Source of the DNA: Bugula neritina
Taxonomy: Eukaryota; Animalia; Bryozoa
Direction of reading: 5' to 3'
Length of the DNA: 64,000 bases
Assembly: GCA_964035545.1 (NCBI GenBank)
Contig: OZ037772.1
Span: 11,716,818-11,780,817, forward strand
Position 1 is the first letter of the stretch; each line of letters starts with the position of its first letter. The notes under the pieces were generated by a model. That model did no database searches, was not told the origin of the DNA, and worked only from the letters and a program-made list of their open reading frames with translations. Below are positions 44,952 to 63,995 of the stretch, piece after piece. Position numbers and translations under genes: made by a program.

Positions 44952-47900
44952 ATGGCCGCTTCTCCTTCACTTCTCCTCTTCTTGTGTCTAGCAGTTGCTG
45001 GGTAAGTTATGAATATATTTATAATGTTTTTAATTATAAAACTTAAATCAATTTTAGCTTATTTAAATTATGATAATTATTGAAATACAATTTTAAAATA
45101 ATAAAAGTAATTACCTGCAGCCATGAATAAAGTACCAGGGAATATCTGTCACTATAAATCACGAAATCTCTATGCATACTTTCTATTTTCTTTAAATAAT
45201 TATACTTAAATTTTGATTAAGTTTAGTTCTGCATTTACTTAAAGTCTGTTATATTATAAAAATAAAAGGAAATTAAACACTGTTTGCTAATCTATATGTT
45301 GTCTTAGTTTACTTATTTTCAAAAGAAAATTAATTAAGAGTATGAAAGCGATTGCATCATAGAAACAACTTTTATGCCTTCTCTCAGCATGAGAACATAG
45401 TTATATAATTATAATTATATAGTATTTATATAATGTTGTAGAGCTAATGGGCTGTGGTGCTGTGGTGACATTGACACCAAGGTCACTTCACAGATAAAGC
45501 CTGTGACCCGCTCAAGGACCATTCAGATGACAGCCGTAGAAACCTATAACCTCAAAACAGGTTAGAACAGAGGCTAAACTCTAAATATAAAACTAATTTA
45601 CTATTAGAGTAGGCAAACTATCTTAATATACATTTTAGCTATTTATTCGAAATATATGAGCATGACTGTGCTGTGTTTTAAATTGAGATTTTAGCTACAA
45701 TGAAGGCATTCAATATAGCTTGTGTATGTCAAACAACAACGAAAATTGCCTTATAAGCAGCTGCGAGTTAGGGGAGGGACTATTTTAGCTTGGGGATCTC
45801 GAGTTTGGTGTTGGGGGACCTAACTCCAAACTTGAGACTCCAAACTAAATTCGTCCTTCACCCATAACTCGGAGATGCTTATAGAACAATTCCAACAAAA
45901 CCTCAGACAATAGCCTTTGTTTCTAGGCTATAAGATATGCCCCAACAATACGGTGGCTGAGAAGGACGTGCCGACTGGGCTAGGGAAGAACCCAGACAAC
46001 ACTGAGGAGAATAGAAAGAAAGTTTTTGGAAACAAGGGACGCTTCAACATCCTCGGTCTGCTGCTCAACGGCAAACTTGGTGGGTAGAAGACTTCACATC
46101 CTGTTTTAACTTTCTTGAGTTATTCCATTGGTTCAACTGAGTTTGATAAAACTGTTTATTTATAAACACAGCCACTTTTTTTGTTAAAAACCTAGACAAG
46201 AGCTTACAATATACTGCATATATATATTACAATTTTACGTTATGTTTTATACAGCATTGAGCATGGTAGCTTTTGTTAAAATATATTATATCATTTCATG
46301 CCGTATTGTGTGTGAGAGGTATTATATATCTTGATTGTATGAAACCATTAGAAACAATTAATATGCTGGCCATTAAGGCTTAATTATTGCTGTTATATAT
46401 ACACTTAGGTGTGCAAAAGGTTCTGTACGTGGTTTGTTTGTTGTGTGCGTATGTGTAAATGTGTGTGCGTATATTATATGTAACACATGAGTGTATACTA
46501 TATTATAAATACTTGCATACATGTTGATTATACACGTGACTTTATAAATTGCAGACAATGATGAGTATCACAGCTACTGTCCTGTCTATTCTATCAAAAC
46601 AAGGTAAATTAAACCATATATTACATAATCTGACAAGCTTGTACAGTATAGAAATTTAAATGTCAGGAGATATGAATTGTTTTATAGATAACTCTGCTGC
46701 TATTGGTATACAGAATGCATGTAAATATACTGATATTGTACTTTCAATTAAACCTATGTCTCAAATTTAATAGAATAATATGTCATAATATTGTATTTTC
46801 AAATTAAAGTGAGAAACTTTTTACAAATTTATTTTTAAAAAATGAGTTGAAATTGTAACAATTATTTTCCAAATTTATTTAGACGATTCAGTCGCAATGA
46901 GCGAACCGTTAGTAAATTATATTATGTACTCTGGTAGGCCTGTAGTAAATTATATTATGTAAATATGTGGTAGGCCTGTAGTAAATTATATTATGTACTG
47001 TGGTAGGCCTGCAGTAAAGTATATTATGTACTGTGGTAGGCCTGTAGTAAAGTATATTATGTACTGTGGTATAGGCCTGTAGTGAAGTATATTATATACT
47101 GTGGTAGGCCTGTAGTAAAGTATATTATGTACTGTGGTAGGCCTGTAGTAAAGTATGGCGTAGAATACTACAAGACGGCTGTGTTTGACGATGAAAAGGC
47201 TTCTTGTTCGGCCAATAAAAAGATTTGTTGTCGTGGTTACAAGCAAGTTGGAGAAAACTGTGTAGGTCAGTGAGAGAACAATTCTGGACATATTTTATGT
47301 CGACTAACAACTTTTTAAATAGCCAGTTTGTCACCTTTTGGCTGTGGGCCATTTTTTTCTAATTTCATAAAGAAAATACAAGCTTGTTTAAACTCTCAAT
47401 TTTAAGAGCCAAAAACTGTGCCTATACTAGCATGAATTACTTGAAGGCTCCTGCTTGAAACATATAAGAACAACTGCATGAACAGCTAGGTTTGTTCCCT
47501 GAAATCACCAATGACTTTGACAAGCTGTAAACCCATGATCTAGTGCATATATACTGTATCAATCTTACATTAAATTATATATATAATATATTGTTTTTAA
47601 ATACGTAAATTATATGTTATGTTTATATACGTATATATGTAATTGTGGTGTAATATATATGTGACATGAGTAGTATAATAAGCGCCTCTACGGCTATGGA
47701 AGTAAGCATCTCGCATCGACCAATTTGTCAACATAGTGTAGACTCTATGGCTATGGAAATTAGCATCTCGTTAACTATGTGAGCATTGTATTTGTTATTG
47801 ATGAATTAGCATTGTAAGCCTTAAAGTTGACAGGTGGTAGCTATTAAATTTAGCTTACGGTGAATACACCTTTTAACTAACTACGTAGTCAGAATCTCAC

Positions 47901-50900
47901 GTACTAAAACATTGATCTATGATTAGTTACCCTCGTTATATCACTGTTGTCACTTTGGTAAATTCTACACTCCGTATAATATTCAATAACCAAAAAGAGA
48001 TTTCTTTTCACCATGAGTTTATTTTCTTCAACAAAAAATGTCATAATAGAATATTACAGCTTTAAATTTTAACAGGATAAGAAGCTTGTTCAAAAATAAA
48101 AGGTAAGTCTACAATTTCCAGTTCTTTATTTAAAAAATTACTATATTTTTGATTAATGTAATTAAATATAAAAGCATCATTTGCGTATGTATCACAACAA
48201 TCATTTATTAAAGATATAATGTGTTCTAGTGAGAAACCTCTGGCTAAATGCGTTAACACAAAAATACAGTATTGTCCGCAAACTGTAGAAAATACAGATT
48301 GTAGCTGAGTGCTACTAAATTGCCAAGAGTCTACTGAATCAAATATAGCCGCAACCTCTGGCATGTTGTAAAGACCACTTCCAAAAGAGTCAAAATAAAC
48401 TCCTGTGTTATTTTCTGTCTTTAGAAACATCACCCAGTGCTCTCCCGGATGATTGTGAGGTTTAGTGTTTACAACTCCACAGCAAGGATAATCCGTCAAA
48501 CTACTACTAGGTATTCTATCGACTGGAAATACACCGATGAAGTTCATCTTTTTCACCCACTCATCGTTCTCAAGAATGGAATATATTTCTTTAGAATTCA
48601 TCACGCGTAGAAATTTGTAAGTACCGCTCTATTCTTATCAATTTTTATACCAGAGTCAAATTCGGAATAGACAATCACATTAACGGGTGTGTCAAGAGCC
48701 TGAGAAAACTTTAGCTCTAATCTTATTGTTCCTCGCTTCATCAAATGAAAGCAAGTGCTCAAATCTAGGTCAGGAGTTAAATCAAAGGCCATTAGACTGT
48801 AACCTTTCTCGTATTCCTCTCTATCTATATCTATTCCGCCATTGTTGAACACCTTTCCCGTTGATTCCAAGAGCGTAAAATAGTTTCTTAGAGTATTATG
48901 ATTTGTGTAGTCTGAAACCAATGCCTTCTGAGGTACTTGTTTCCCGTCAACGACTAGGTTTGTATATTTTAAATGTTTGTGCTGAAAGTTGAAAGGATTC
49001 AAATTGTACGCGCCTTCGAATGCACCAGCGTTTACAATACCTATAACTATCCTCTTAGGCAGAATACCGTGAAATAAATTTTCTTCGTTCCAAGACAATG
49101 AACCCAATGCGATATTGAATGACTTCATATCAACTCTTCTGATAGGATAAACGGCTGGCAATAGTTTCTTGTCTAAATTTTCAATGTGCTTTAATTGTAT
49201 TCCGCTATTGATTTTAACTTTTCGAAGGAAAAAAGATGCGTTTAGGATTTTTAGTTTGCAAGTAGAGTTTTCACCAGCCATTAGCACTAAGCTGTTGTGA
49301 TTCCTCACAAACTTTAATTTCATGTCTACTCCATTTAAAATGAATCGTCTTTGAAAGAATATGTCAGCGTGCGGTCTAACAATTAACTGCACAGTTTTAC
49401 TCTGCCCCGTAATTCGCCTTCTAGCTTCCAAGCCTTCATTATCACCACCAATGTGATCCATTTTTCCGGGTGTATCCTTTGAGTAGAGTGACATTGATAG
49501 TTGTGACTTTTTAGCTTCATCGGAGTAACTTAGTAAAGTTTCTATAAGAGCTCTGTAGTGGTAGAGATTAGAAGCGTTGGAAATAACTACATCATTTAGC
49601 ATAATTTCTACTTGTTGAAATAATGTGTGACCCAAAAGGTTTATAGGAGCCGCATCACCTTGAGCATCGAGATCCGTACCGTCAGCTTTTGTTATTTTCA
49701 CCTCTAATAATAGATAGCTTGAACTGAGGTCAAGGTAGTTGTTCGAATCACCAGAGATTGAGAACTTTATAGGTCCCTCATCATTCAGTGAGGTTGTGGG
49801 CATATGTTCTACGTGATATCCTTCTTCGATTGATGCTTGAGTAGGTAGTGTAGAAAATAAATCTAATTCGGGTTTGCCAGCGAGGCAGCTATGTTCCATT
49901 ATGAAACTCATAGTATAGTATTCTATGAAAAGATATCGCGTTTAGTAACCCTACGTCTTTTCACCTTTGAAGACTTGGAAGAAGTAACTCTGTTAGTCTG
50001 ACGCTTCCTTTTTTTATTTCGATTTCTGTTGGTGACGTATGTAATACCTTTAGTAATAACCTCTCCAGCCGCGCTGTTGACATTATCTTTAATTGACTCT
50101 CTGAATGGTTTACCGGATAAACTATCTCTGGCAATGTTTAGACCAGTATTTATTGCTGTCTTTCCTAAACTTTTTACACCTTGTTTTACAACAGGCAATG
50201 CTGCTTTGAGTATGTTACCAAATATGCTCCCTAAACCGTATCCTGTTTGATATTTTTCTCCTGAAAATATTGGAATCATTCCATTTCCTGATTGTTCATA
50301 TAACTGTCTATAGCTATTTGATGCGGCATCACAATCGAATGGAATTATTCTCATATTAGGTTTATAGGTTTAACTTTTCGAATATCTACCGTTACCACTG
50401 TACGTCCATGCGTGAATGGTACTCTTTCACCGTAATCCGTGTATATATAAATTGATACACTCGAAACATGCGTTTTATTTATTTTGCAGTACTGTACATT
50501 GTTAAAGTTAGTGGACTGCAACCTCCAATGACCATCCTCGACTCCTACAACTCTTAGTAGTTGAGCCTGAGTATCTCCAACAATACTAGATTCTGCTACA
50601 TCTGTATACACCATCAGGTTAAATATTGTATGTAATCTTATTGGAGTATTGTACTTGACCAAAATTGTGCCATCGGTCATTGATTTTATCTCCATTTTTT
50701 CTTCCTGTACATTAAGTATTTTCTCAAGAGATGGTGAGTATGTGATGTCTATAGAGCAACCTCTAACATTTTCAGCAATGACATAAAAATTCTTATTGAC
50801 ATCGTTGTAATAGAAATTAAATTTTACTTTCAGATTTAAACACTGGTCATTTATTGCTTGATTGATAGATTGTATTAGCTTTTTATCTGATTTGTAGTAA

Positions 50901-53900
50901 CCATCATCTAGATGCACTGTTTCTTCAGCTTCATTTACTTTTAAGGTTATGCTGCACTGTTTCACATTGAACCATGATTTATAAAATTGTATCTCACTCA
51001 ATCCGATCTCGTAAGAGCCATCTGTAAAATCTAAACTTTGAGGCAATTGAACTGTGTATACTGAAAGACTATTTTTTGGAAAATGCTTCAACGAAGCATT
51101 ACTAGGTAAAACAACGCGCATCTTTGTAAGAGTGACAACATATAAGTTTATTATCTAATTCTTATAGTTAAAAATTACATCTCTTTTATCAACATACGAG
51201 TCAAAACTTGGCGGATATCCAGCCCACCTTACAAGAAATTGTTTTTTACCATTTACAGTACGCTGACCAACAATTGACTCTATTTTATAGGTGTTGCTCT
51301 TGGTGTTTACTTTCTGCAATTCCGGTTCATACCATGTTCCTTCTAGCTGATCACCGCTGTCATCCGCGAGAGAATACACTGGAGGATTAGTAGTGTGGAT
51401 TTTCGCTATGGTAAAGATTTCTTCGCTCCAAGAAGGAAGGTATCCTTTTTTAAATACTGTACTATATTTCGATATTCTAACGAGATCTCCAACATTGTAT
51501 TTTAGTTTGTTAGTTTGACCACTCTGACTATCTGTGTATAGTCTATGCCAAATTTCTTCTTGATTGTTAACTGTCACATCATTAGGTGTTGAGTTATGAG
51601 CCGAGTGTTTCGAGTTATTGTATGATGATATTAGATCATTGAGAATGTCAAGATATCTGTGACTGTTTTGATGAGTAAAATATTTAAACAATTTAGCCTT
51701 TAGTGTTCTTTGCAGTCTTTCAACCATAGATGCTTTAATTTCTTGATTGTTGGATGAAAAGTGGTTTATGTTATATTCTTTCATTAATGCTTTAAATTGA
51801 GGGTTAAAGAATTCTTTGCCTCTATCTGATAAAATCATTTCTGGTGGAGTGTTGTTGTTTTCGTTTTCTATAATCTCCCTCATAGCTCTACTCACTTCTA
51901 AACCAGATTTAGTTTTGAGTGGTACACCGTAGGCTTTACGACTGAATGTGTCAATGCTTAATAGTATATACTTGAATCCATTATTTTCGGATGAAAACTG
52001 TTGGAGATCTGTTAAATCAATTTGCCACATGGCATTAATACCTGATACAATATACTTTCGTCTGGGAAAGTTTTTTCGCAAAGGTTTATGTAGGTTATAG
52101 CTGTCAGTTTTTTCAAGCCATCTATCAATTGCACCCTTGCTTACTTTGCCTTTTAATGATTTGTATAATTTTGCTTTACTACCAAATCCGGCTGGTTTAG
52201 AAATATTGAAATAGGTGTCTCGAATTAGTTTATCAGTATAGCTGGAGTCTGGATTTTGCTTTTTTCGTTTTCGCCTTGCCATCGTATGGATCCCACTCGC
52301 CTGATGACAATTTACTAGACTCTCTTCTACTTTTAGATTTCTCTTCGATAACGTTTTGATTAATGAGTAGTTTGGGTACATTGTAATCAATTAATACTTG
52401 TCTAAATTCTTTCCACCCTTCCAATGTTTTACCTTTCAGTTGACTATTAACCGCAAGATTTAATAGATCAGATAAATTGCTTCCGCGTAGTTGGTTGCCG
52501 TTAATAGTTACCTGCCCCGCATCATTTACAGAAACTTTACCATCTTTTTTCAGTATATCCCAAAGTTGACTCGCCTTTGTTTTAAATCTTTGAGGGATAG
52601 CTAGTAGTGGGTTATAAGATGTAAGACTTTCTGTTTCTTTTAGTTGTGGTTCACTATTCTTTGATAAAGTAGGCAACCTTGTGCTAGATATTTTCTTATA
52701 AGTAGTAGTTTTTAACTCTTGATAATTAGTCAACGCGTTGTTATAAGCAGTTACTTTCTTATTTTCTGATAGCGTGTTGTCATTTAAGATTTCACTCATT
52801 AGCTTATCTACGGCAAATAGTTCTTTAGTAATCAAAGGTTTGTTTCTCTCGACTTGTTGATAATCATTATTTTTGCTGACATCAGCATTTACAAATGAGT
52901 TGTGTTTTAGATCCGCGGCATCCACTAACAAGAATTTTCTAGCGCTTTGCGAATTCATCTTTTTCTAAAACCGCTGAATATTCCTTTCGCTAGTGGTGCT
53001 AGAACACTTCCTATTAGTGGTCCTAAAAGAGCCGAGAGAAACCCTCCTTTCTGTACCAGTGTTTTTTTAGTTTTCAGTGTACTCTTTTTATCAGCAATCT
53101 TTCTTAAAATATTTTTGTATTTACCTAAGTTGTTTTCTTCAGTAGGTGACAATGACACCTTGCCTTTTAATACGTTGTAGCAAATATCTGAGAAACAGTT
53201 CAACAGTTCACTACCCGCTGCGTTGATGATTGCTTTACAGTTGTGTTTGTCACATTCAGCTAAATAACTTAGAGTCTTGGCATGTTTTTTAATTCTAGCG
53301 GTCATGATTTATGTTAGCTTCAAGCTGCATTTCTTTGTAATGAAGTAGCGTTTCTGTTTGACAAATAGATATAGGTTTTCTCACCCGGAAATACACCTGT
53401 TCTAATGCGCAAATAGTCTTCTGTCTCTTGCCTGTAGTCTATAACCAAGTACCCAAAGGGGACAGAAGTGGCGTCTCGAAACGCTTCAACAACAAAATTA
53501 CTCTGGTTTTTAGGAAACATTTGTCTTGCCAAATAGGATATCTGGTTCACGTCTCTAGGGTTTTTAAATACAACAACATAAGAAGCGCTTCGAGACATTG
53601 TTCTCATGTGAGAGTTGTCTTGAAACAGATTCTGTGTTATAAATATTACGCTTATGTTGCGATGGTGACTGTGCTTAGTAAATATGTTTTCAATATTCTG
53701 ATCTATTTCACTCATTAAATCATCAAATATTATCAAGTTTTTTATATTTTTGTTTAATTCTTGTATATCGATAACACCTTGATGAAACTCAACGTTGTTG
53801 TATGAGCTAAACAGTGGCTGCCACTCACTATAACAATATATTATTTTTTCAGGTGGAGGTGATATCATTGTATGACTGTTGGTAATCAATTTCCTTACCC

Positions 53901-56900
53901 ACTGAGTTTTACCAGCCCTTGAAGGACCAGCTACAATTGCTGAAAATGTATGGTAGAAAGGTAAGCTCATGATGTTAACTGTATATTCCGAGAGTTTATT
54001 CCCAAATAATTGTATCAAGTAATGTACAAAAATATTAATAGGCATAAAAAAGTATAAATAGATTTAGGCAAGTTCAGGCATGTTTAGGCATGTTTAGGCA
54101 TGTTTAGGCAAGTTTAGGCAAATATACACAATTATATACAAAATAAACTATTGTACATTGTTTTGTTTCTCGAGAGCTATTCCCAAGTTCCATTGGATCT
54201 GTTGAATAAAATATTTCACTGCGAAGTGTTCTCCAGCCTCGATATACATTTTGCAAATTTGCACGCACAAGAAAAATATTGTTTCTAAGCGAATAGCTGA
54301 GATATTTGGATCAGTCAAATCTTTTGCCACTTTACAAAACTGAACGTAACCGTTAGTCTCGTACATATCCTCGGCTAGTTCGACCAATTCATTTATTTCT
54401 TCCTCACTCCAATTTTGATGTTTATTGTACATGTCCAAAACGGTTTGCGTTATACAATAGTTAACGTAATGTTGTCTACTCATTTTCGAAAGCTTGTACC
54501 ATATATAATTATAAGCGTTTTTCTGTAATAGGTATAAATTTTCCATCGTAGAATATTGATTGATGCGACCTATCAACCGAACAGTGAAATACCAATTAAC
54601 TGAACGCGCTAACTGAACACAGTTTTTTTACAGTAAAGTAGGTTTGGTTGTCACGTGATCTTGTGACACAATTCTCTTTCCGTAAAAATAATTTAAAGCT
54701 TTTCGATTTTGAACGTACGTGAATATTTCTTCACCTTTTACTCGAAAACCCTTGTTCGTACCGTAAGCAATTTTCTGATTTATCAATACATCGAAGTAAT
54801 CTTTTTCGGTATAGTTGTTGTGCAATTTACTGACACCTTTTGAACTGTATTTAGGTTCTTCCCCGAAACAATAGTAACATTTGGAGCAAAGCGCTACAAC
54901 ACCTCGGGAGACATTTTCGCAGTGAAACAACCCCAAAGATCTTTTGTGGAACTTGGCACTAGCTTTACAACAGTCTAATGGATTCCAGGTTTGCCCGTTA
55001 AACATACATTGAAAATATTGTGACTTGTGTTCATCGCAATATTCTCTACACATCCAACTAGTGTGTTCTTGTTCAAATTCATTTCTCATATCACTTTTAA
55101 CCGCTAGGTACAAAGTTTTTTCACTTAGAGCTAAATACATTGAGTCAGTGTCCATTTGAATCAAAGCAAAACTGTCTAGAGATAGAAACTTTAACAAGAA
55201 ATCGTAATAGAATTTCAACATGGCTAGCTTTGCATACTCTAATACTTGAAAGCCAATTTGTACTGGTACATTGAGTCTAATCTTAGCTTTTCGTGATTCA
55301 ATTTCAACTAGTTGAGAATCAATTTCTTGTAAGCTGTTAAATCTAGGATTGTTTACCAGTCTTGAGATGTTTGTCTCTTCAGCATCACAATATATGATAT
55401 CAGTGTGACTCTCCAGGTTGACTAGTGTTCGGCCATACGCAGAGTTTCCTGAAATATAGCGAAGTGGATTATTTTGAAATATATTGAGTAATTATTCAAT
55501 GCAAAAGTTATCGCTCTTGCTAGATGCTTAAGTGATTTGCATATTAATAACCATTGAATAAGTGCTATGTCTAAACATGTCAATATTTACTAAATACCTA
55601 TTAGTTTGCATGAATCCGATATAATCTTCTTTGAGGAATCGAGGTCACCAGCTCTCCTGGCCTCCATTACCTTTTCACCAAACAGCTTGAAGCATTTTGA
55701 TGGCTTGTATTGAATTACTTGATATACTTTTGTAACCACTAAGCCGTGTTGTAGGTACCATTGCAGTAGCGGGGTGGACAAAAGGATTTTGTTCCCGAAA
55801 TAGCTACTGATTAAAGTACGTGATGGCTTTTTTAGTAAACCATTTCGTTCTGCAAATTGTTTCATGTGTGGGCCTATGTCATCCCTTGATATCAGTACAT
55901 TTTTTTGTATAGGTTGATATTTAGCAAATATTGTTTTCAAGTCTTCAGGTGTTTCTATATCAACTTCAGCCATTCCAAACATTGAACCATTTTTGATTTC
56001 TTCTAGTATTTTGCTTTCTGATATTACGTATCTTGAATCAACAATGAAGTCCAGATTTGAGCAGAACTCACTGACATCACTGTTTTCCTTTTTCAAATTA
56101 TCAAATTCACACTCCCAAGTATGGTAGACTCTGTAACCCAAATCTTGGAAATATTTCAGCGTATTGTATGTGTCTATTTGATTTTGTAAATCTTTTTCTT
56201 TGTTATTAAACTTTCCATTTGGACAATAGTCGCATAGATGTCCGTGAAACCAGCATCCTGAGTAGTTGAACACTTGTTCACTACCATCACTCGCCAGAGC
56301 GTATCCATCGACTGGTATGTTTCGTCCACCTATTCGACGTTCGGTGCTATTAAACTTGTGTTGAATTTTGACTCCGAGCAGCTTTGACATGTATTTTAGC
56401 CATACTGTAGCTTTTTCACCCGAATAGTAGCTTTTTTCTATTCTAAAGCTATTTTCTCTCCGCCTTCTTACAAAGGCTCCTGTGGGCATATCTTTCACTA
56501 GGCAACTCAAATATAAACTTGTCGCATCATACCCTACACATGTTTGCGTAGTTTTGGCTTGATCACCAAAGTATTCAGGTTTAATCTTTGTTGCGCCAGC
56601 TTCTTGATACCTTGAGAACACAATTGATAAACCACCTCTAATGTTTGATTTGATAAGTTGGTGAATGTCTTTAAACTTATCACCAAACAGAAAGATTGGC
56701 GCTTCTGGGTCTTTTAATTGAAATAAATATTGAATCGCTAGTCCTGGTATAGATATAGCTGACTTGAAATCAAGATTGCATGATTTGTAAAATTCATTTT
56801 GCTTTTCTAATGCTGGTATAAAGTGTCTGACATCTTCGTTATTGTAGTACTCTAGTAAGTCTTTTAATGTTTTCATTCCTTTCTGCACCCATATTTCTTT

Positions 56901-59900
56901 GCATTTTTCATACTCCTGAACGGATATGTTTTTACCTTTCAGTTTACTGTAAAACTCTTCATGAGCGGGGAACTCTGTTCTGTCTAGCACTTCCATAGAT
57001 GTGAATATGTCATAAGGCCAGAAGAATTTTTCCCCTTCAACTCCCATAGCTTTTAGATAATCAGAGTACGAAAACCCTGGAGCAAGGAAATTGAGCACGT
57101 CTAGAAATCTTAATTTTTCCGTTTGAATACACATGTATTTGTTTCCTTTTTTAGCTGTAAACAAAACTTTTTGGTTTTGTTCTAATAGATACCGTAGCAT
57201 ATGTTGTCGAATCAATGGAATGTCATAGACAGCGCCGTTGAAAGACAAGATCATCAAGTCTTTCAAATAACAGTGGAGTTGACTTTCTAGTGATTCAAAC
57301 TTTTTTTTGACATTGTTCACTGCTTTGTTATTACAACTAGCTTCAATTTCTTTCTTGATACACTCGTCAGCTTTTTCACGTAGTTGTTTAAACACATCAT
57401 TGTATCTAACAAGCAATCTCTGGTAGCATACTTCAGACAGCTTTGTAAGGAAATCCATCATTTTCACAACCAGCTCGTATTCATTTCCAGAATTCATGAA
57501 ATTCACTGGTTGTGTATAGCCAGATACGTTTGAGCATAAACTTATACAAGCCAACTTGTGTTTGTTTTCATAGTGTATTGTATTTGTGTTTGCAGGTAAA
57601 TCAATCGAAGACATCATCGTTTCGCAATCAAACACAGCAAAGTACGGATAATGTCGTCTATTTTCATCAACTGTGATGTGAACATCTTCAAGCTTTTCGA
57701 AAATAGATCGAGACGGAGTATACACCCCGTAGGGATACACAAGGTTTGTTTCACCAGCTGTACATACTGTGTTATGACTATTCAACGCTCTGACTGATTT
57801 CATTAGCTTGTTACAAAATGTACATTTGTATGACTTTGTGTAAAGAGAGATGTTTTTTATCCAACTGAAATGTGATTCCTCTAGATGTAGGTTTAGTTTG
57901 TGTTTGTAATTGGTAGTGGCTCTGTACATAAGCTTTGCATTAGCTTCTTTCCCTGTATTGTATTCCAAGGTGTACACATTAATAGAACAGTTCAGTATTC
58001 GCTCGGCAAATCTGAGGTCTGATAAAGGCACTCCTGTAAAATCTTGATTCAGTTTGTTCATACCATTCAAGTACATTTCATAATAATGTTTCGTAGACTG
58101 TGTTAAAGTACTCTGCTGCCCCTTTGAGTAAGCTAGAGCTCTAAATAGACATAAGTTGTCTTCATACAGTCTTCCAGTTGTATCAGTGCTAGCTGTTATA
58201 ATTGCTTTGTTTTGTTTTGTTCTCTCAGATGGAGATATAGGGCATCCGATATTGTGATCTGGTATAGGAAATACATACAATGTAATATTTGTTATTTTGT
58301 GAACACTCCACGAAGTGTTTGGCCTGTTTTGAGTTGCTTTCTCTATGAAATCTTTTTCTGTCATTTCTTTCACAAGTTGATTGAAATCTTGTAAATTCTC
58401 TATTAGCTTTGGCGAGGCAAAAAGTTTATCAACACCCATGCTAGCATGAAAGTATCTCAACTTTTCCTCATTTTGATTCAAAAGGATAAAACCAATTGAA
58501 GCATTGCATTTGAATTTCAATGTTTGTTCATGAAATATTAATTTCACTTCTTTATTGTTTAAAGTTGAAATAATGTCATTGTCTTTTATCAATCGATTGT
58601 AGACACTACAATATTTCCCTTTTCTGTTGTACGTTCTTATAGCTGACCAGTTTTTTCTCAATAGAGCATTTGTTTCCTCTTCGTAAATGCCTTTGTACTG
58701 ATAGCGTTCAATATCATCACTGAATGTGGTTTGAGGCTTTTTGTTTGACCTTCTCTCTGCTCCGTTTGAGTTTGTATTCTAAAATTTACCAAGATTACCA
58801 TTGATTAGTTAGCTTTGAGTTTGTTGTAATAGTATATGTAGTATGATCATATTCATATCGTATCGTATCACTCAGTAGATAAATTACCGTGTTATGACAT
58901 CGGTGATTTGTTTTCCACGGTGCATACAACCGTTTACATTGATCACATCTTTTTTTGTGGATACTTTGGTGCCTGCTCAAACTTTGCCTGTGGTTATAAC
59001 TTTTTCCACATATGTGGCACTTGAATTTCTCTAAAACATTGAAGTATAAATTATTCTTTTAACCACCTTGATAGAGATGCAAGGATCAAAGAAAATTACT
59101 TCAAATAGAGATATTGTTTATTAATATGTAAATAGATACACTCATAAATGTATATACTTGACATATAGTGGCATTATCAGATAGAATTGTCAGGTTTACT
59201 ACACTCTTCATCAGAGCCAGAAGAACAGTGTTTTAAACTTTTTCATCGAGTATATATTAAGATATATTGAAATAAATTGAAATAGATTGAAGTATATAGA
59301 TATTGTATATTAACAACTCGCTTTTATACATTTTGTGTTTAATAGTGGCAGAGATAGTATTGAATTTCTTTTCATCGAGTATATATTGAGATAGATTGAA
59401 GTATATAGATATTGTATATTAACAACTCGCTTTTATACATTTTGTGTATAATAGTGGCAGAGATAGTATTGAGTTTCTTTTCATCGAGTATATATTGAAA
59501 TAGATTGAAGTATATAGATATTGTATATTAACAACTCGCTTTTATACATTTTGTGTTTAATAGTGGCAGAGATAGTATTGAGTTTCTTTTCATCGAGTAT
59601 ATATTGAAATAGATTGAAGTATATAGATATTGTATATTAACAACTCGCTTTTATACATTTTGTGTTTAATAGTGGCAGAGATAGTATTGAATTTCTTTTC
59701 ATCGAGTATATATTGAGATAGATTGTAATATATGGATGTTGTATATTAACAACTCGCTTTTATACATTTTGGGTTTAATAGTGGCAGAGATAGTATTGAA
59801 TTTCTTTTCATCGAGTATATATTGAGATAGATTGAAGTATATAGATATTGTATATTAACAACTCGCTTTTATACATTTTGGGTTTAATAGTGGCAGAGAT

Positions 59901-62900
59901 AGTATTGAATTTCTTTTCATTGAGTATATATTGAGATAGATTGAAGTATATAGATATTGTATATTAACAACTCGCTTTTATACATTTTGGGTTTAATAGT
60001 GGCAGAGATAGTATTGAATTTCTTTTCATCGAGTATATATTGAGATAGATTGAAGTATATAGATATTGTATATTAACAACTCGCTTTTATACATTTTGGG
60101 TTTAATAGTGGCAGAGATATAGTATTGAGTTTCTTTTCATTGAGTATATATTGAGATAGATTGAAGTATATAGATATTGTATATTAACAACTCGCTTTTA
60201 TACATTTTGGGTTTAATAGTGGCAGAGATAGTATTGAATTTCTTTTCATTGAGTATATATTGAGATAGATTGTAATATATAGATGTTGTATATTAACAAC
60301 TCGCTTTTATACATTCAATAGTAGCAGTGCTAGTATTGAATTTCTTTTCATTGAGTATATATTGAGATAGATTGTAATATATAGATGTTGTATATTAACT
60401 CGTTTTTATACATTCAATAGTAGCGGTGCTAGTATTGAATTTCTTTTCACTGAGTATATATTGAGATAGATTGTAATATATAGATGTTGTATATTAACAA
60501 CTCGCTTTTATACATTCAATAGTAGCAGTGCTAGTATTGAATTTCTTTTCATTGAGTATATATTGAGATAGATTGTAATATATAGATGTTGTATATTAAC
60601 AACTCGCTTTTATACATTTTGTGTTTAATAGTGGCAGAGATAGTATTGAATTTTTTTTCATTGAGTATATATTGAGATAGATTGTAATATATAGATGTTG
60701 TGTATTAACAACTCGCTTTTATACATTTTGTGTTTAATAGTGGCAGAGATAGTATTGAATTTCTTTTTACTGATTATATATTGAGATATATTGTAACAAT
60801 ATTTTAAACAATAATACGCATAAAAGTATTCCATTCACCAACATAAAATATTTCCCCATCACCAAAAAATACAACATATTTATATTAGAGAGTCAGTGTC
60901 AGTCCGTCAGCCTAAAAATTTTATGATCGGCTCCGATCGTTTAAAATAATTATATTCATCCGGTGATATGTCGTCTAGTTTGATTTCGGTCACATTTAGT
61001 GACCAAAATAAGTCCTCGTTTACTTTTTTTATCACACCGCTTCTCAACACGCATGTTAATTTTCCCACTTTTCCATACAGTTGTTGTACATTTAATAACA
61101 CAGGTTGTCCATTGACTACAGCATTTACGCAAATTTCGTCTTCCATGTTTCTGACCACGTCAACATAACATCCGAGCAATGATGCATTTTCACTTTTACC
61201 GTAAAACTTAACTTTTTTTTCAAAAATTTTAGCTAGCTTTGTTTTAAAAAGTTCTAGATTTTTAGATTTTTTCACATATAAACATGGCCCACTGTTGGGA
61301 ATTTTCGACTCGTATATTTTTAATTCACCTATAAATTCATCAGATTTAAAAAAGAATTTACGCGAATGATTAAATGTAGGTATTATCTTGTCATTGTCAG
61401 TGTAGTAGGATAATTGTGATTGATCATAATTAAGAGGGACTAAATAGCAACCTTCTTCATTTGCAGGTGTTTTGCTCTGATCGACAGCGGTAGCAGCAGT
61501 GGCAGCATCATCACTTGTAGTAACAGTTGTACCAGTAGAGGAACTAGCGGATGGAATAGACAACGTCATAGAGGAAGGAGTGGTAGTAGCGCTAAAAAAG
61601 AGGGATCTATTACTATGTTTTATAATATGTAACTTATTCTACGTAATATAATTTATTACACGACAAACGTCTGTTTATTTGTTTATAGTTTGTCAAGTGA
61701 ATACAATTAATTGTGAGTCTTACAGATGATTGATGATTTACGATATTCTACTAACCTCACGCTGGTAGATACAGATGGCTCGCTAGTCGACTCATCCACC
61801 TTTGGAATTGATGCAGGTTTCTTACGCTTTGATTCACCAGACTTAGATTCACTAAAATAATATTATTGTAATGAATAAAATGCTACTTTTAGCTGATAAA
61901 AAAGGTTAGCATAATTATAGAAAGCTAACACTATAGTAAACTAAAATCATTCTCGTGTTAATAATATTCTAACAGGTTAGTGGTTAGCATAGTTATAGAA
62001 AGCTAACACTATAGTAAACTAAAATCATTCTCATGTTAATAATATTCTAACAGGTTAGTGGTGAGATATCCAAAAGAAATATATTATTACTTACTTTTTT
62101 CTTTTAGAAGGCTTTAAGGCTTTGAGTGGTTCAACTGTACTGGAACTAGTACTCGTTTCTCCCACTTTTCTTCTGAGTTGTAGTAGTTCAGCTTCTAACT
62201 TCTTTACTAAATCTCCCATGGTGTTTGCTGTATGGTTTGGGATGCGATGAAACATAGAAGTTTTTCGAGGCTTTTATATACTGAGATTTTGTAATTTATT
62301 CCTACGTAAATGAAATTTATCTTAACTAAAAGTTTTCCTCTTTTTTATTATAGGGAGTTGGGTGGTAACATTTTAATTGTAATCTGCCGGTTTAAGGTTT
62401 ACTCACGTAAGCAATATTATATCAGTTTACGTAGGTGATACGTGTTTTAACAGTTGCATATGTATTTAAATTTCAACTAGGACACTTCCCATCCGTAAAT
62501 TAGAAATTGCCGTGTCATCCATCTTAGCTGAAAAATTTTCCGATTTCTAACTATAATGAGGAATTGAGTTGTTAAATTTTAAATACAATCCACCCATCTA
62601 GGGTTTAATTACTGGGCGATATTATATCAGGTTATACAAGATTTTATTATGTTTTACTTCCCATTGATTAAATTGGAAACCGCTGTGTCACCTCCTAATT
62701 TTTGCTAATATTAATTTTTACTTTGTCAAAGTTTCAAACATCATTAGCATAAGGTTAATTATCTTTTTTCTGCTTTTTGAGTTTCAGAAAAATTGTGTCA
62801 AGTTATAAGTTTAAAAATGGAGTTGCAAATAGAGTTGGACCATAAGACATGTTTTTTGTTTCCATTTAACATTTTATTATAAACTATGAGTTGTATACAG

Positions 62901-63995
62901 AAAAACATTACATTCCGTAATAATTATTTTCTAAAATGTGTTTAGTCAAAACTGTTAACAGCTTAGATGGTGAAGACGCATCACTCTGAGACATATTACC
63001 ATTCAAGAAAAAATATTGTATAGTTATAAAATCCCCGTGAACTTTAGTGTTGCAAACAGCTAGTTTTAAATTGTCAGTCATTTCGAAGTGTTTTGTGCAG
63101 TTATTGAACATTCTGTCTAAAGTATAATTAGTTGAAAACATCTTTCCAGAAAAGCTACCATTACCGCTCATAACTATGTTGATTACATTCATTGATAAAA
63201 ATAGTGCTACCAGGATAATAGCGATAGGTTTCTTTTTTAGTTCTGAAAAGCTCCAGTCATTCTTTGCATTATCTCTCCTGGTCGAAACTTTATTAATGAG
63301 TGTATTCCGATTATGTACAACTTTTCTCGCCACATCTAACTCATCTTCAGCCACATTTGCATCTTGTTCATTAAATATAGGATCTTTATTTTGCAAGGGA
63401 AAATTTTCTACTTCTGTCATCATTGATTAACCTTTGCGCTCAAAACATATAACGATGAATGATGTAAATTTCAGAATGGTGATGTTTTATACCAAAAAAC
63501 ACACAAATTTTGACTCGCAAACTGTATAACTCTCAGCTCAGTGAGTAAATTTTGTTACTTATAAAGTTAGTGACAAGGATATACAGCTAAACTAATCATT
63601 GATCCACCTTCCAGTAATTGCTTAAAAAGGTGTATTCACTGTAAGCTAAATTTAATAGCTACCACCTGTCAACTTTAAGGCTTACAATGCTCACATAGTT
63701 AACGAGATGCTAATTTCCATAGCCATAGAGTCTACGCTATGTTGACAAATTGACCGATACGAGATGCTTACTTCCATAGCCGTAGAGGGGCTTATTATAC
63801 TACTGACATGTGCTTACTATTAACACAGAAACATACATATTATTATGTGTAAAATATATGCACGCATTCGATCTCATATGTGAGGAATTGCTGTGTTACA
63901 AATACAAACCTGTCATTTGTTTTGCAGAAGAAAAAAAAGCTGGTGATGCAAATGACGCTCTGGACTTCCTTAAGGGTCTTGGCATTGTTGGATAA
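44952..63995 (+). CDS. Small secreted EMI-domain-like host protein, ~7 exons; last intron contains the Polinton
   Basis: Phase-compatible exons: 44952-45001 (signal peptide MAASPSLLLFLCLAVAG), 45442-45560, 45927-~46079, 46555-46603, 46883-~46910, ~47149-47265 (…KICCRGYKQVGENCV, EMI-type CCxGY-x5-6-C end; phase-1 donor G|GTCAGT) and 63928-63995 (TTTGCAG|AA, phase 1; EEKKAGDANDALDFLKGLGIVG-stop). Confidence 0.7.
45745..45890. mobile_element. Short palindromic MITE-like element
   Basis: Imperfect inverted arms AATTGCCTTATAAGCAGCTGCGAGTTA ... TAACTCGGAGATGCTTATAGAACAATT, with an inner CTCGAGTTTGG/CCAAACTTGAG pair. Confidence 0.55.
46911..47155. repeat. ~33-bp tandem repeat filling an intron of the EMI-like gene
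   Basis: Unit TATTATGTACTGTGGTAGGCCTGTAGTAAAGTA, ~7 copies, running into the next exon. Confidence 0.9.
47669..47874 (+). repeat. Left TIR (206 bp)
   Basis: Reverse complement of 63625-63804, with 6 substitutions and a 26-bp extra segment. Confidence 0.95.
48062..48601 (-). CDS. Adenain-like cysteine maturation protease (PRO)
   Basis: Motifs NTKPHNHPGEHWV, YFDSFG, QLQS..STVCGQYC (His/Asp/Gln/Cys). ATG at 48601 overlaps the MCP stop (TGATG). Confidence 0.92.
   Translation of the reverse strand: MNSKEIYSILENDEWVKKMNFIGVFPVDRIPSSSLTDYPCCGVVNTKPHNHPGEHWVMFLKTENNTGVYFDSFGSGLYNMPEVAAIFDSVDSWQFSSTQLQSVFSTVCGQYCIFVLTHLARGFSLEHIISLINDCCDTYANDAFIFNYINQKYSNFLNKELEIVDLPFIFEQASYPVKI
48601..49911 (-). 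CDS. Major capsid protein (double jelly-roll, Polinton PY/hexon-like), 436 aa
   Basis: ELDLFSTLPTQASI, YLDLSSSYL, TLFQQVEIMLN, YHYRALIETLL, LPKRIVIG, NPFNFQH, GYSLMAFDLTPD are typical Maverick MCP motifs; position fits. Confidence 0.9.
   Translation of the reverse strand: MSFIMEHSCLAGKPELDLFSTLPTQASIEEGYHVEHMPTTSLNDEGPIKFSISGDSNNYLDLSSSYLLLEVKITKADGTDLDAQGDAAPINLLGHTLFQQVEIMLNDVVISNASNLYHYRALIETLLSYSDEAKKSQLSMSLYSKDTPGKMDHIGGDNEGLEARRRITGQSKTVQLIVRPHADIFFQRRFILNGVDMKLKFVRNHNSLVLMAGENSTCKLKILNASFFLRKVKINSGIQLKHIENLDKKLLPAVYPIRRVDMKSFNIALGSLSWNEENLFHGILPKRIVIGIVNAGAFEGAYNLNPFNFQHKHLKYTNLVVDGKQVPQKALVSDYTNHNTLRNYFTLLESTGKVFNNGGIDIDREEYEKGYSLMAFDLTPDLDLSTCFHLMKRGTIRLELKFSQALDTPVNVIVYSEFDSGIKIDKNRAVLTNFYA
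49923..50354 (-). CDS. Conserved small basic Maverick protein (putative core/membrane-lytic precursor), 143 aa
   Basis: QSGNG / QTGYGLGSIFG..LKAALP motif, amphipathic helix, K/R-rich tail ending DIFS; lies between the minor and major capsid genes. Confidence 0.7.
   Translation of the reverse strand: MRIIPFDCDAASNSYRQLYEQSGNGMIPIFSGEKYQTGYGLGSIFGNILKAALPVVKQGVKSLGKTAINTGLNIARDSLSGKPFRESIKDNVNSAAGEVITKGITYVTNRNRNKKRKRQTNRVTSSKSSKVKRRRVTKRDIFS
50351..51121 (-). CDS. Minor capsid protein (penton, single jelly-roll), 256 aa
   Basis: N-terminal VLPSNAS..FPKNSLSVYTVQLP..YEIGLSEI and C-terminal VYTDVAESSIVGDTQAQLLRVV motifs of Maverick mCP. Confidence 0.85.
   Translation of the reverse strand: MRVVLPSNASLKHFPKNSLSVYTVQLPQSLDFTDGSYEIGLSEIQFYKSWFNVKQCSITLKVNEAEETVHLDDGYYKSDKKLIQSINQAINDQCLNLKVKFNFYYNDVNKNFYVIAENVRGCSIDITYSPSLEKILNVQEEKMEIKSMTDGTILVKYNTPIRLHTIFNLMVYTDVAESSIVGDTQAQLLRVVGVEDGHWRLQSTNFNNVQYCKINKTHVSSVSIYIYTDYGERVPFTHGRTVVTVDIRKVKPINLI
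51155..52282 (-). CDS. Retroviral-type (rve/c-int) DDE integrase with C-terminal chromodomain; probable start MARRKRKK at 52282 (ORF open to 52390)
   Basis: WQIDLTD, LSDRGKEF, ASMVERLQRTLK (D,D,E); KGYLPSWSEEIF; chromo-like YKIESIVGQR...FLVRWAGYPPSFDSYV. Confidence 0.93.
   Translation of the reverse strand: MARRKRKKQNPDSSYTDKLIRDTYFNISKPAGFGSKAKLYKSLKGKVSKGAIDRWLEKTDSYNLHKPLRKNFPRRKYIVSGINAMWQIDLTDLQQFSSENNGFKYILLSIDTFSRKAYGVPLKTKSGLEVSRAMREIIENENNNTPPEMILSDRGKEFFNPQFKALMKEYNINHFSSNNQEIKASMVERLQRTLKAKLFKYFTHQNSHRYLDILNDLISSYNNSKHSAHNSTPNDVTVNNQEEIWHRLYTDSQSGQTNKLKYNVGDLVRISKYSTVFKKGYLPSWSEEIFTIAKIHTTNPPVYSLADDSGDQLEGTWYEPELQKVNTKSNTYKIESIVGQRTVNGKKQFLVRWAGYPPSFDSYVDKRDVIFNYKN
52233..52958 (-). 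CDS. Conserved Maverick hypothetical protein (PZ-type, label tentative), 241 aa
   Basis: Motifs MSEIL..LSENKKV..Y, VNDAGQVTING..LRGSNLSDLL, GWKEF..NVP resemble the uncharacterised ORF seen next to the integrase in animal Mavericks. Confidence 0.7.
   Translation of the reverse strand: MNSQSARKFLLVDAADLKHNSFVNADVSKNNDYQQVERNKPLITKELFAVDKLMSEILNDNTLSENKKVTAYNNALTNYQELKTTTYKKISSTRLPTLSKNSEPQLKETESLTSYNPLLAIPQRFKTKASQLWDILKKDGKVSVNDAGQVTINGNQLRGSNLSDLLNLAVNSQLKGKTLEGWKEFRQVLIDYNVPKLLINQNVIEEKSKSRRESSKLSSGEWDPYDGKAKTKKAKSRLQLY
52955..53305 (-). CDS. Conserved small basic Maverick protein with adenovirus pX/mu-like C-terminus, 116 aa
   Basis: NVLKGKVSL..YKNILRKIADKK..LVQKGGFLSALLGPLIG; ATGA overlap with the next gene. 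Confidence 0.75.
   Translation of the reverse strand: MTARIKKHAKTLSYLAECDKHNCKAIINAAGSELLNCFSDICYNVLKGKVSLSPTEENNLGKYKNILRKIADKKSTLKTKKTLVQKGGFLSALLGPLIGSVLAPLAKGIFSGFRKR
53320..53970 (-). CDS. FtsK/A32-like DNA packaging ATPase (probable start MSLPF at 53970; ORF open to 54045)
   Basis: Walker A GPSRAGKT, Walker B LIIFDD, HHRNISVIFITQNLF, VFKNPRD, PFGYLVID. Confidence 0.92.
   Translation of the reverse strand: MSLPFYHTFSAIVAGPSRAGKTQWVRKLITNSHTMISPPPEKIIYCYSEWQPLFSSYNNVEFHQGVIDIQELNKNIKNLIIFDDLMSEIDQNIENIFTKHSHHRNISVIFITQNLFQDNSHMRTMSRSASYVVVFKNPRDVNQISYLARQMFPKNQSNFVVEAFRDATSVPFGYLVIDYRQETEDYLRIRTGVFPGEKTYIYLSNRNATSLQRNAA
54066..54115. promoter_or_regulatory. Five tandem p53-family consensus half-sites (putative response element)
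   Basis: AGGCAAGTTC AGGCATGTTT AGGCATGTTT AGGCATGTTT AGGCAAGTTT; each is 10/10 RRRCWWGYYY with zero spacer. Function is untested. Confidence 0.6.
54148..54546 (-). CDS. Accessory alpha-helical protein, putative divergent Bcl-2-like fold, 132 aa
   Basis: ATG at 54546 (MENLY). The segment GYVQFCKVAKDLTDPNISAIRLETIFFLCVQIC...V..F...I...L keeps the gap-free register of the Bcl-2-family alpha4-BH1-alpha5-alpha6 region. The ORF is well supported; the fold is inferred. Confidence 0.55.
   Translation of the reverse strand: MENLYLLQKNAYNYIWYKLSKMSRQHYVNYCITQTVLDMYNKHQNWSEEEINELVELAEDMYETNGYVQFCKVAKDLTDPNISAIRLETIFFLCVQICKMYIEAGEHFAVKYFIQQIQWNLGIALEKQNNVQ
54628..59030 (-). CDS. polB: Protein-primed family B DNA polymerase (pPolB) polyprotein, spliced: exons 59030-58888, 58778-55598, 55448-54628; first exon unresolved; ~1380 aa
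   Basis: ExoI FDCET, ExoII FNGAVYD, ExoIII YNNEDV, motif A YDATSLY, motif B KLIG|NSAYG rebuilt across a 149-bp GT-AG intron, motif C MDTDS, KCY..SKGV. The N-terminal part has a C2H2 finger and an OTU-like DNLCLFRAL..SHFSW region. Confidence 0.92.
59240..60797. repeat. 109-bp tandem array, 14 copies (three ~100-102-bp variants), inside the Polinton
   Basis: Anchor CAACTCGCTTTTATACA recurs at 59314, 59423, 59532, 59641, 59750, 59859, 59968, 60077, 60188, 60297, ~60398 (degenerate), 60498, 60600, 60709. Confidence 0.95.
60907..62219 (-). CDS. Three-exon Polinton gene (62219-62095, 61851-61756, 61591-60907), 301 aa; putative nuclear ssDNA-binding protein
   Basis: Kozak ACCATGG at 62219; donors AA|GTAAGT and AG|GTTAGT; acceptors TTTTAG; both introns are phase 2 and the frame is continuous into track ORF 60907-61569. 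Coiled-coil N-terminus, KRKN..KRKKP NLS-like motif, S/T-rich linker, beta-rich C-domain. Confidence 0.75.
62271..62280 (-). promoter_or_regulatory. TATA box of the 3-exon gene
   Basis: TATATAAAAG about 50 nt upstream of the Kozak ATG at 62219. Confidence 0.6.
62908..63423 (-). CDS. Accessory single-pass membrane protein, 171 aa
   Basis: KKKPIAIILVALFLSMNVINIVMSG signal-anchor-like segment, followed by N-x-S/T sequons NGS, NYT, NCT, NMS; TATAAAA at 63491-63485. Confidence 0.65.
   Translation of the reverse strand: MMTEVENFPLQNKDPIFNEQDANVAEDELDVARKVVHNRNTLINKVSTRRDNAKNDWSFSELKKKPIAIILVALFLSMNVINIVMSGNGSFSGKMFSTNYTLDRMFNNCTKHFEMTDNLKLAVCNTKVHGDFITIQYFFLNGNMSQSDASSPSKLLTVLTKHILENNYYGM
63625..63804 (-). 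repeat. Right TIR (180 bp)
   Basis: Inverted copy of the left terminus; ends ...TTATACTACT followed by the TSD GACATG. Confidence 0.95.

Follow-up and report, generated by a model that had tools for sequence, protein, structure and literature searches.

A divergent, anchorless Bcl-2-fold protein predicted in a Bugula neritina Polinton, next to a candidate p53 array

A complete Maverick/Polinton in the window

The window (the whole 64,000-nucleotide stretch of Bugula neritina DNA that we analyzed) carries a complete Maverick/Polinton with terminal inverted repeats, AGT-type ends and a 6-bp target-site duplication, the end motif agreeing with that given for Polintons in the available text of PMC8097293. 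Its main features, in window coordinates, are these:

47669-63804, no strand assigned: whole Maverick/Polinton, 16,136 bp, with AGTAGT...ACTACT ends, terminal inverted repeats at 47669-47874 and 63625-63804, and the target-site duplication GACATG
48062-48601, minus strand: likely adenovirus-type protease (weak Peptidase_C5 match, E 0.016)
48601-49911, minus strand: likely major capsid protein (weak Capsid_N match, E 0.024; equal position in related loci)
51155-52381, minus strand: retroviral-type integrase with chromodomain (Pfam rve, E 2.4e-14; Chromo, E 1.8e-6)
53320-54045, minus strand: packaging ATPase (Adeno_IVa2, E 8.6e-5; relatives with PF04665), the first gene downstream of the p53 array
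54066-54115, no strand assigned: five tandem perfect p53 half-sites, RRRCWWGYYY, in a 10-bp unit with no mismatches and no spacer
54148-54546, minus strand: ORF of 132 residues with a predicted Bcl-2 fold (helices 1-6), without BH2 and without a membrane anchor (from the intact frame, the model and fold searches)
54628-58439, minus strand: protein-primed DNA polymerase B, split over two frames, one at 55590-58439 and the other at 54628-55221 together with the frame upstream of it

The core gene set of a Polinton is thus represented, the integrase and ATPase being recognized by Pfam, the capsid and protease by weak matches, and the polymerase by motifs and synteny; the polymerase frames had no significant match in Pfam, and their identity was taken from motifs and related loci. 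Along the minus strand the polymerase comes first, followed by the Bcl-2-like ORF, the packaging ATPase, a pair of unnamed ORFs, the integrase, another two ORFs, the capsid and the protease; the Bcl-2-like ORF is thus flanked by polymerase and ATPase. Two accessory ORFs at 60907-61569 (220 residues) and 62908-63423 (171 residues), both on the minus strand, had no significant Pfam match.

The two polymerase frames are likely split by an intron. The gene is interrupted inside its K-L-x-x-N-S-x-Y-G motif, at about 55450-55600 on the minus strand, by what is likely a GT-AG intron; since the polymerase genes of two related loci (L002 and L003) are broken at the same place, this looks like a conserved intron rather than decay. 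Upstream of the polymerase and inside the element there is a 109-bp tandem repeat of ~14 copies with 95% matches (59272-60793), and joints in other sequencing runs suggest that its length varies between copies. In one sequencing run (X1) the summed contig depth was mostly ~1,000-1,500 over the element, compared with 57 over the left flank, with few differences; such depth is not equivalent to copy number, but its combination with few differences suggests many young copies of the element. A contig from the same run (depth 540) joins positions 54594 and 60704, skipping 6,109 bp, and is likely a deletion derivative that has lost the polymerase and retained the Bcl-2-like gene, at least in its 5' part. 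RNA-labelled contigs covered parts of the Bcl-2-like ORF only, at a depth of 3-5, which is too little to show transcription. As to the contents of related Polintons, L010 has a dUTPase gene at 1148-1657 (Pfam E 2e-29), and L002 has at 14542-15042, 3' of its protease gene, a TPR-like ORF (recognized by eye) that may belong either to the cargo or to adjoining host DNA.

Homologs of the Bcl-2-like ORF

An alignment of 30 ATPases, used as query, recovered 81 related loci, and 3 of their 893 ORFs matched the ORF product: those of L001 and L002, which encode identical proteins (E 3.7e-17), and that of L010 (E 5e-11). Each of the three homologs occupies the slot between polymerase and ATPase. The slot was visible without a homolog in L003-L006, L009, L011, L030-L032, L036 and L081, many other loci being too short to show it. 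Locus scans with the ORF protein itself as query found none, and neither did a search of viral contigs with a single ATPase as query. An ORF upstream of the polymerase in L003 and L005 that looked similar by eye was rejected as a homolog (hhalign probability 1.2%).

A three-row profile searched against 1.84 billion proteins retrieved 30 proteins, of which 28 were kept; P0135 (a repeat frame) and P0152 (74 residues) were judged spurious. Our 24-row alignment omits these two together with two near-copies and three fragments. None of the 20 family members that we looked up had an informative name. The only named relative, KAF6025960.1 (P0005), is a 74-residue annotated protein of B. neritina whose start matches the end of the Bcl-2-like ORF (an overlap of 26 residues, 88% identity) and whose remainder resembles, by eye, a stretch of Polinton capsid; it probably reflects a gene prediction that spans a rearranged copy.

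The initial annotation of this DNA, made from the sequence alone, had read the ORF as a putative viral Bcl-2-like protein and looked to profile searches for a Bcl-2 hit. For the ORF product itself there was none, as the single protein matched no Bcl-2 entry in Pfam (where BTB, at E 0.035, was the only match) or among PDB sequences, but its relatives did give such hits below threshold. The sole Pfam match of the L001 protein was Bcl-2 (E 0.013), and 8 of the 27 relatives scanned matched PF00452, which was the best match in 7 of them (best E 2e-5, 25.4 bits); none of the 27 reached the Pfam cut-off of 31.4 bits for this family. A hydrophobic tail (mean hydropathy of at least 1.5) is present in 7 of the 24 aligned rows. 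In a tree without an outgroup, the 11 short rows, including the window ORF, fall on one side of a branch with support of 51/8 (83/82 when P0136 is left out), which lends weak support to a single origin of the short group. The genomic context of family members comes from three loci (L001, L002 and L010). For 4 of 29 rows looked up, the longest contig has the length listed for one of the ATPases, which hints weakly at a Polinton location for further members.

Predicted fold and anatomy of the ORF product

Modeled from its single sequence, the product reached a pLDDT of 61.5. Foldseek returned Bcl-xL or Bcl-2 in all 38 matches listed for this model (best E 0.051), and unrelated three-helix bundles scored as high or higher (YpkA came first in the structural alignment, and Bcl-xL ranked 20 in a wide search). 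The model had no match in BFVD, and one ESM Atlas search with the ORF protein gave no match; a TIMELESS fragment (0.75) from the Atlas was a mere lead and was dropped.

AlphaFold2 supplied with the 24 rows produced a confident model (pLDDT 96.7, pTM 0.90; five models spanning 95.8-96.7) with helices at residues 4-9, 11-23, 34-44, 48-63, 66-78, 84-103 and 107-131. All 34 Foldseek matches listed for this model were to the Bcl-2 family (TM up to 0.72, best E 0.03). In a VIA search of 48,161 solved chains, Bcl-2-fold proteins filled ranks 1-33 without exception, headed by Trichoplax Bcl-2L2 (Z 11.6, rmsd 3.8, 128 residues aligned) and Bcl-xL (Z 11.4, rmsd 3.8, 119 aligned) and including Bok, Bax, CED-9 and herpesviral, iridoviral and poxviral members, and the first unrelated chain had a Z of 5.3. 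The top Z of 11.6 is below the VIA caution level of ~13 for helical bundles; despite this, a chance likeness of fold is unlikely because of the gap in Z, the full-length cover and the agreement with sequence profiles. Against the PDB, 18 of the 22 rows found by the three-row profile were Bcl-2 or Bcl-xL, aligned from BH4 to helix 5, and 40 of the 59 rows found by the 24-row profile belonged to the Bcl-2 family; the top row of the latter was a designed helical repeat (E 4.6e-4), and its best natural match was zebrafish BCL2-like 10 (E 0.0057).

With a confident model, two fold searches and sub-threshold Pfam matches in relatives pointing the same way, the Bcl-2-type bundle foreseen in the initial annotation is predicted over helices 1-6 and very probably correct. 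We file the product as a divergent Bcl-2-fold protein and not as a proven viral Bcl-2, because the BH1 NWGR and BH2 motifs of the canonical family are missing but the fold is predicted. On the minus strand its parts are arranged as follows:

54478-54537, minus strand: helix 1, residues 4-23 (4-9 and 11-23 in the model), aligned to Bcl-xL BH4
54439-54459, minus strand: residues 30-36, a stretch Y-x-[VI]-N-x-x-V peculiar to the family, located in the linker between helices 1 and 2 (Tyr30 in 20 of 24 rows, Val36 in 21 of 24)
54358-54447, minus strand: helices 2 (34-44, the BH3 position) and 3 (48-63), from the model and profile alignment
54238-54351, minus strand: helix 4 (66-78), degenerate BH1 (Ile85, Arg86) and core helix 5 (84-103), from the model and alignments
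54154-54228, minus strand: helix 6 (107-131), followed by the end of the chain, from the model and structure search

The motifs quoted in the initial annotation are all present in this frame, one spacer given there as four residues being five, and its by-eye register on Bcl-xL was recovered both in the first model (residues 65-132 on Bcl-xL 118-186, 68 aligned pairs) and in the good model (3-132 on Bcl-xL 1-186). It had reported the BH1 Arg as kept and the NWG of BH1 and a C-terminal anchor as missing, and this is what we observed: an HMM alignment puts Arg86 on the Arg of VNWGR, Arg is the only part of the NWGR motif retained in the ORF product, and there is no hydrophobic C-terminal tail, only 11 residues following position 121. 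In the Bcl-2 family BH2 is the region of helices 7-8; here the chain stops after helix 6, at the equivalent of Bcl-xL position 186, and both BH2 and helices 7-8 are absent. Of two upstream helices offered as BH3-like candidates, one (34-44) is indeed helix 2 at the BH3 position, but it is short and has no BH3 Gly-Asp motif, and the other (48-63) is helix 3. The alignment of helix 1 with Bcl-xL BH4, which the initial annotation did not include, came from both profile (E 0.29) and structure; N-terminal pieces had no Pfam match to BH4.

The most conserved positions in the family are Trp16, Tyr30, Asn33, Val36, Leu77, Tyr92, Tyr101 and Ile114 (the ORF product has Thr33 and Phe92), with Trp16 in helix 1 retained in 19 of the 24 rows. 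At the BH1 Gly position 8 of 24 rows have Gly (1 of the 11 short rows; the ORF product has Ile), and at the Arg position 7 of 24 have Arg (3 of the 11 short rows); judging by these counts, the groove signature is not under strong selection.

A candidate p53 element ahead of the ATPase gene

The array of half-sites follows the stop of the Bcl-2-like ORF by 32 bp and precedes the first ATG in the ATPase ORF by 20 bp, and it contains what defines a p53 response element by sequence, namely at least two half-sites without a spacer. Single half-sites occur in the window at the frequency expected by chance (19 seen, 18.4 expected), the tandem array is the only run of at least two half-sites in the element, and a 10-bp unit fits the p53 consensus in some rotation with a probability of ~0.002. 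The array varies by one unit between copies of the element, some others carrying one extra. Judged as sequence, the array is real and unlikely by chance, and is a candidate p53 element.

Beside the homologous gene in L001, L002 and L010 the spacer has no array, and a search of viral contigs for a three-unit array pattern found 0. The best of the 81 loci was L003, where six relaxed half-sites fall within 100 bp (470-560), a result reached by 0 of 100 simple pair shuffles; this cluster sits elsewhere in its locus, which has no Bcl-2-like homolog. A cluster in L005 (762-800) was not above chance (15 of 100 shuffles). The L003 and L005 clusters, which belong to a related lineage of Polintons, both lie just 3' of what is probably a splice donor.

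Since the array is missing beside three homologs and the L003 cluster occurs without the gene, gene and array are not an obligate pair. The initial annotation had set the gene next to a p53 array and proposed that the two could work together. Five perfect half-sites are present, but they come after the gene and before the ATPase, and this position, together with the distribution just described, leaves a coupled module unsupported. Most likely the array is a control element in its own right, specific to the lineage and placed ahead of the ATPase-integrase-capsid genes, and in the window element both gene and array may act.

Comparison with known Bcl-2-fold proteins

Helices 1-6 of the predicted model superpose on those of cellular Bcl-2 family members (Bcl-xL, Bcl-2, Trichoplax Bcl-2L2, zebrafish NRZ and Bok) over 110-128 residues with Z of 10-11.6, and the BH4-like helix 1 and the BH1 Arg align as well. 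However, identity is just 9-13%, and the ORF product differs from the cellular proteins in having neither helices 7-8, an anchor nor NWG, and in its short helix 2 preceded by a conserved extended linker. Adenovirus E1B-19K is a Bcl-2-like death inhibitor, and the polymerase, protease and ATPase of adenovirus have a common ancestry with those of Polintons; the E1B-19K family was not among the Pfam matches of the ORF product or its relatives.

Vaccinia N1 is likewise small and anchorless, with little identity to cellular proteins, and yet blocks apoptosis (available text of PMC11209288). It matched our model with a Z of 7.1 (rmsd 4.1, 108 residues aligned, 5% identity) and belongs to an unrelated virus; its binding of Bim, Bid and Bak has been shown, whereas binding by the ORF product is putative. 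Vaccinia A52, B14, A46 and A49 have, as predicted for the ORF product, a Bcl-2 fold without BH sequence motifs, and A52, A46 and A49 matched the model with Z of 6.5-7.8 (A46 7.2, A52 6.5), the cellular proteins matching better. The groove is closed in A52 and B14, according to the accessible part of PMC2494871.

Bcl-2-like accessory genes are already on record in animal Polintons, as Bcl2 and IAP homologs occur in adintoviruses (Starrett et al. 2021, PMC8502044, where the available text has one sentence and three map labels in Fig. S2 on them); we compared these Bcl2 homologs with the window family by description. In the same text Oncoid genes are located upstream of PolB rather than in the slot between it and the ATPase, and p53 does not occur. 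Anti-apoptotic genes in mammal-associated adintoviruses are mentioned in the accessible part of bioRxiv 10.1101/2024.03.25.586562. There was no occurrence of "bcl" or "p53" in the available text of PMC8097293 and PMC11131425, and none of "polinton" in that of the vBcl-2 review PMC11209288. Our literature searches, which covered papers outside subscription, returned no paper on p53 sites in Polintons, on the truncated Bcl-2 family, on its slot or on the adjacent array. Bcl-2 homologs in Polintons have thus been known since 2021; of the truncated family, its slot and the neighboring array these searches gave no earlier record.

Possible roles of the gene and the array

The best explanation in our view, with a probability of about 0.58, is that the ORF encodes a soluble anti-death Bcl-2-fold protein of the Polinton. 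The ORF is an accessory gene of the integrated element. Its product, predicted to have a shortened Bcl-2 fold and to be soluble, likely binds Bcl-2-family or BH3 proteins of the host, and such binding would delay death of the host cell while the element replicates. Because hydrophobic tails occur in seven of the aligned rows, several rows having Gly-Arg at BH1, we infer descent from a membrane-anchored Bcl-2 gene whose anchor would have been lost in the short group, and the product may act in the cytosol like vaccinia N1.

The same fold could instead do another job, as a repurposed scaffold that, like vaccinia A52, B14 or A49, binds an innate-signaling protein (NF-kB/Toll) through a surface other than the groove. 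This would suit the best-kept residues (Trp16, Tyr30, Asn33, Val36, Tyr92, Lys99, Tyr101 and Gly105), which are not those of BH1 and map to helix 1, the helix 1-2 linker and the stretch from helix 5 to the 5-6 turn, as well as the weak conservation of BH1 and the absence of BH2 and anchor, and it has a precedent in A52 and B14, which share the fold without blocking apoptosis (PMC2494871, available text). We nevertheless hold it possible but unlikely, as the predicted structure is nearer to cellular Bcl-2 proteins than to A52 or A46, Arg86 is retained in the window ORF, and viral Bcl-2 proteins may keep the groove despite low sequence conservation (PMC11209288, available text). A pro-death or membrane-active protein, with a Bax/Bak-like hairpin of helices 5-6 aiding particle release, seems very unlikely: the structure search placed Bok, Bax and Bak (Z 11.3, 10.3 and 9.2) among the close matches, and they appear among the rows of the 24-row profile too, but the ORF product has no BH3 Gly-Asp motif and no anchor, and the viral Bcl-2 proteins in the available text of PMC11209288 and PMC2494871 are pro-survival or signaling inhibitors. 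Least probable of all, and by our estimate highly improbable, is a helical bundle of no relation to Bcl-2, its likeness being due to chance or model bias; a lack of significant direct sequence matches, a single-sequence model fitting unrelated bundles equally or better and the empty BFVD and Atlas searches would be expected of it, but sequence profiles and two structure searches agree on one family and one register.

Compatible with either the anti-death or the innate-signaling reading is a coupled stress switch, in which host p53 would bind the array and turn the element on, and the Bcl-2-like protein would prevent the cell death set off by p53. Five perfect half-sites so close to the gene, the low probability of such a unit and an L003 cluster that none of the shuffles reached all speak for a switch of this kind, but the array is downstream of the Bcl-2-like gene, in three loci the gene is present but its spacer holds no array, and L003, the best of the loci, has its cluster elsewhere and no homolog; we consider the switch doubtful. 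More speculative again is its fullest form, a Polinton whose six-helix anchorless Bcl-2 core is wired to the p53 array, such that DNA damage would launch integrase and capsid while p53-driven death is blocked.

Implications for animal Polintons

To the questions of how animal Polintons are triggered and how they deal with the defenses of the host, this element brings a predicted regulator of cell death together with an array of p53 type. The element appears to have been active recently, its target-site duplication being intact and its near-identical copies apparently many. The family of ~28 proteins escapes standard domain searches. As predicted here, it is an invertebrate addition to the viral Bcl-2 families, with anchored and anchorless forms, which offer a natural series for the shortening and repurposing of the scaffold, parallel to that in poxviruses. 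If the wired arrangement is true, a lineage of marine-animal Polintons would have its own unrecognized Bcl-2 family bearing a new conserved surface, and a provirus that reads DNA damage of its host through p53 would be an animal counterpart of prophage SOS induction.
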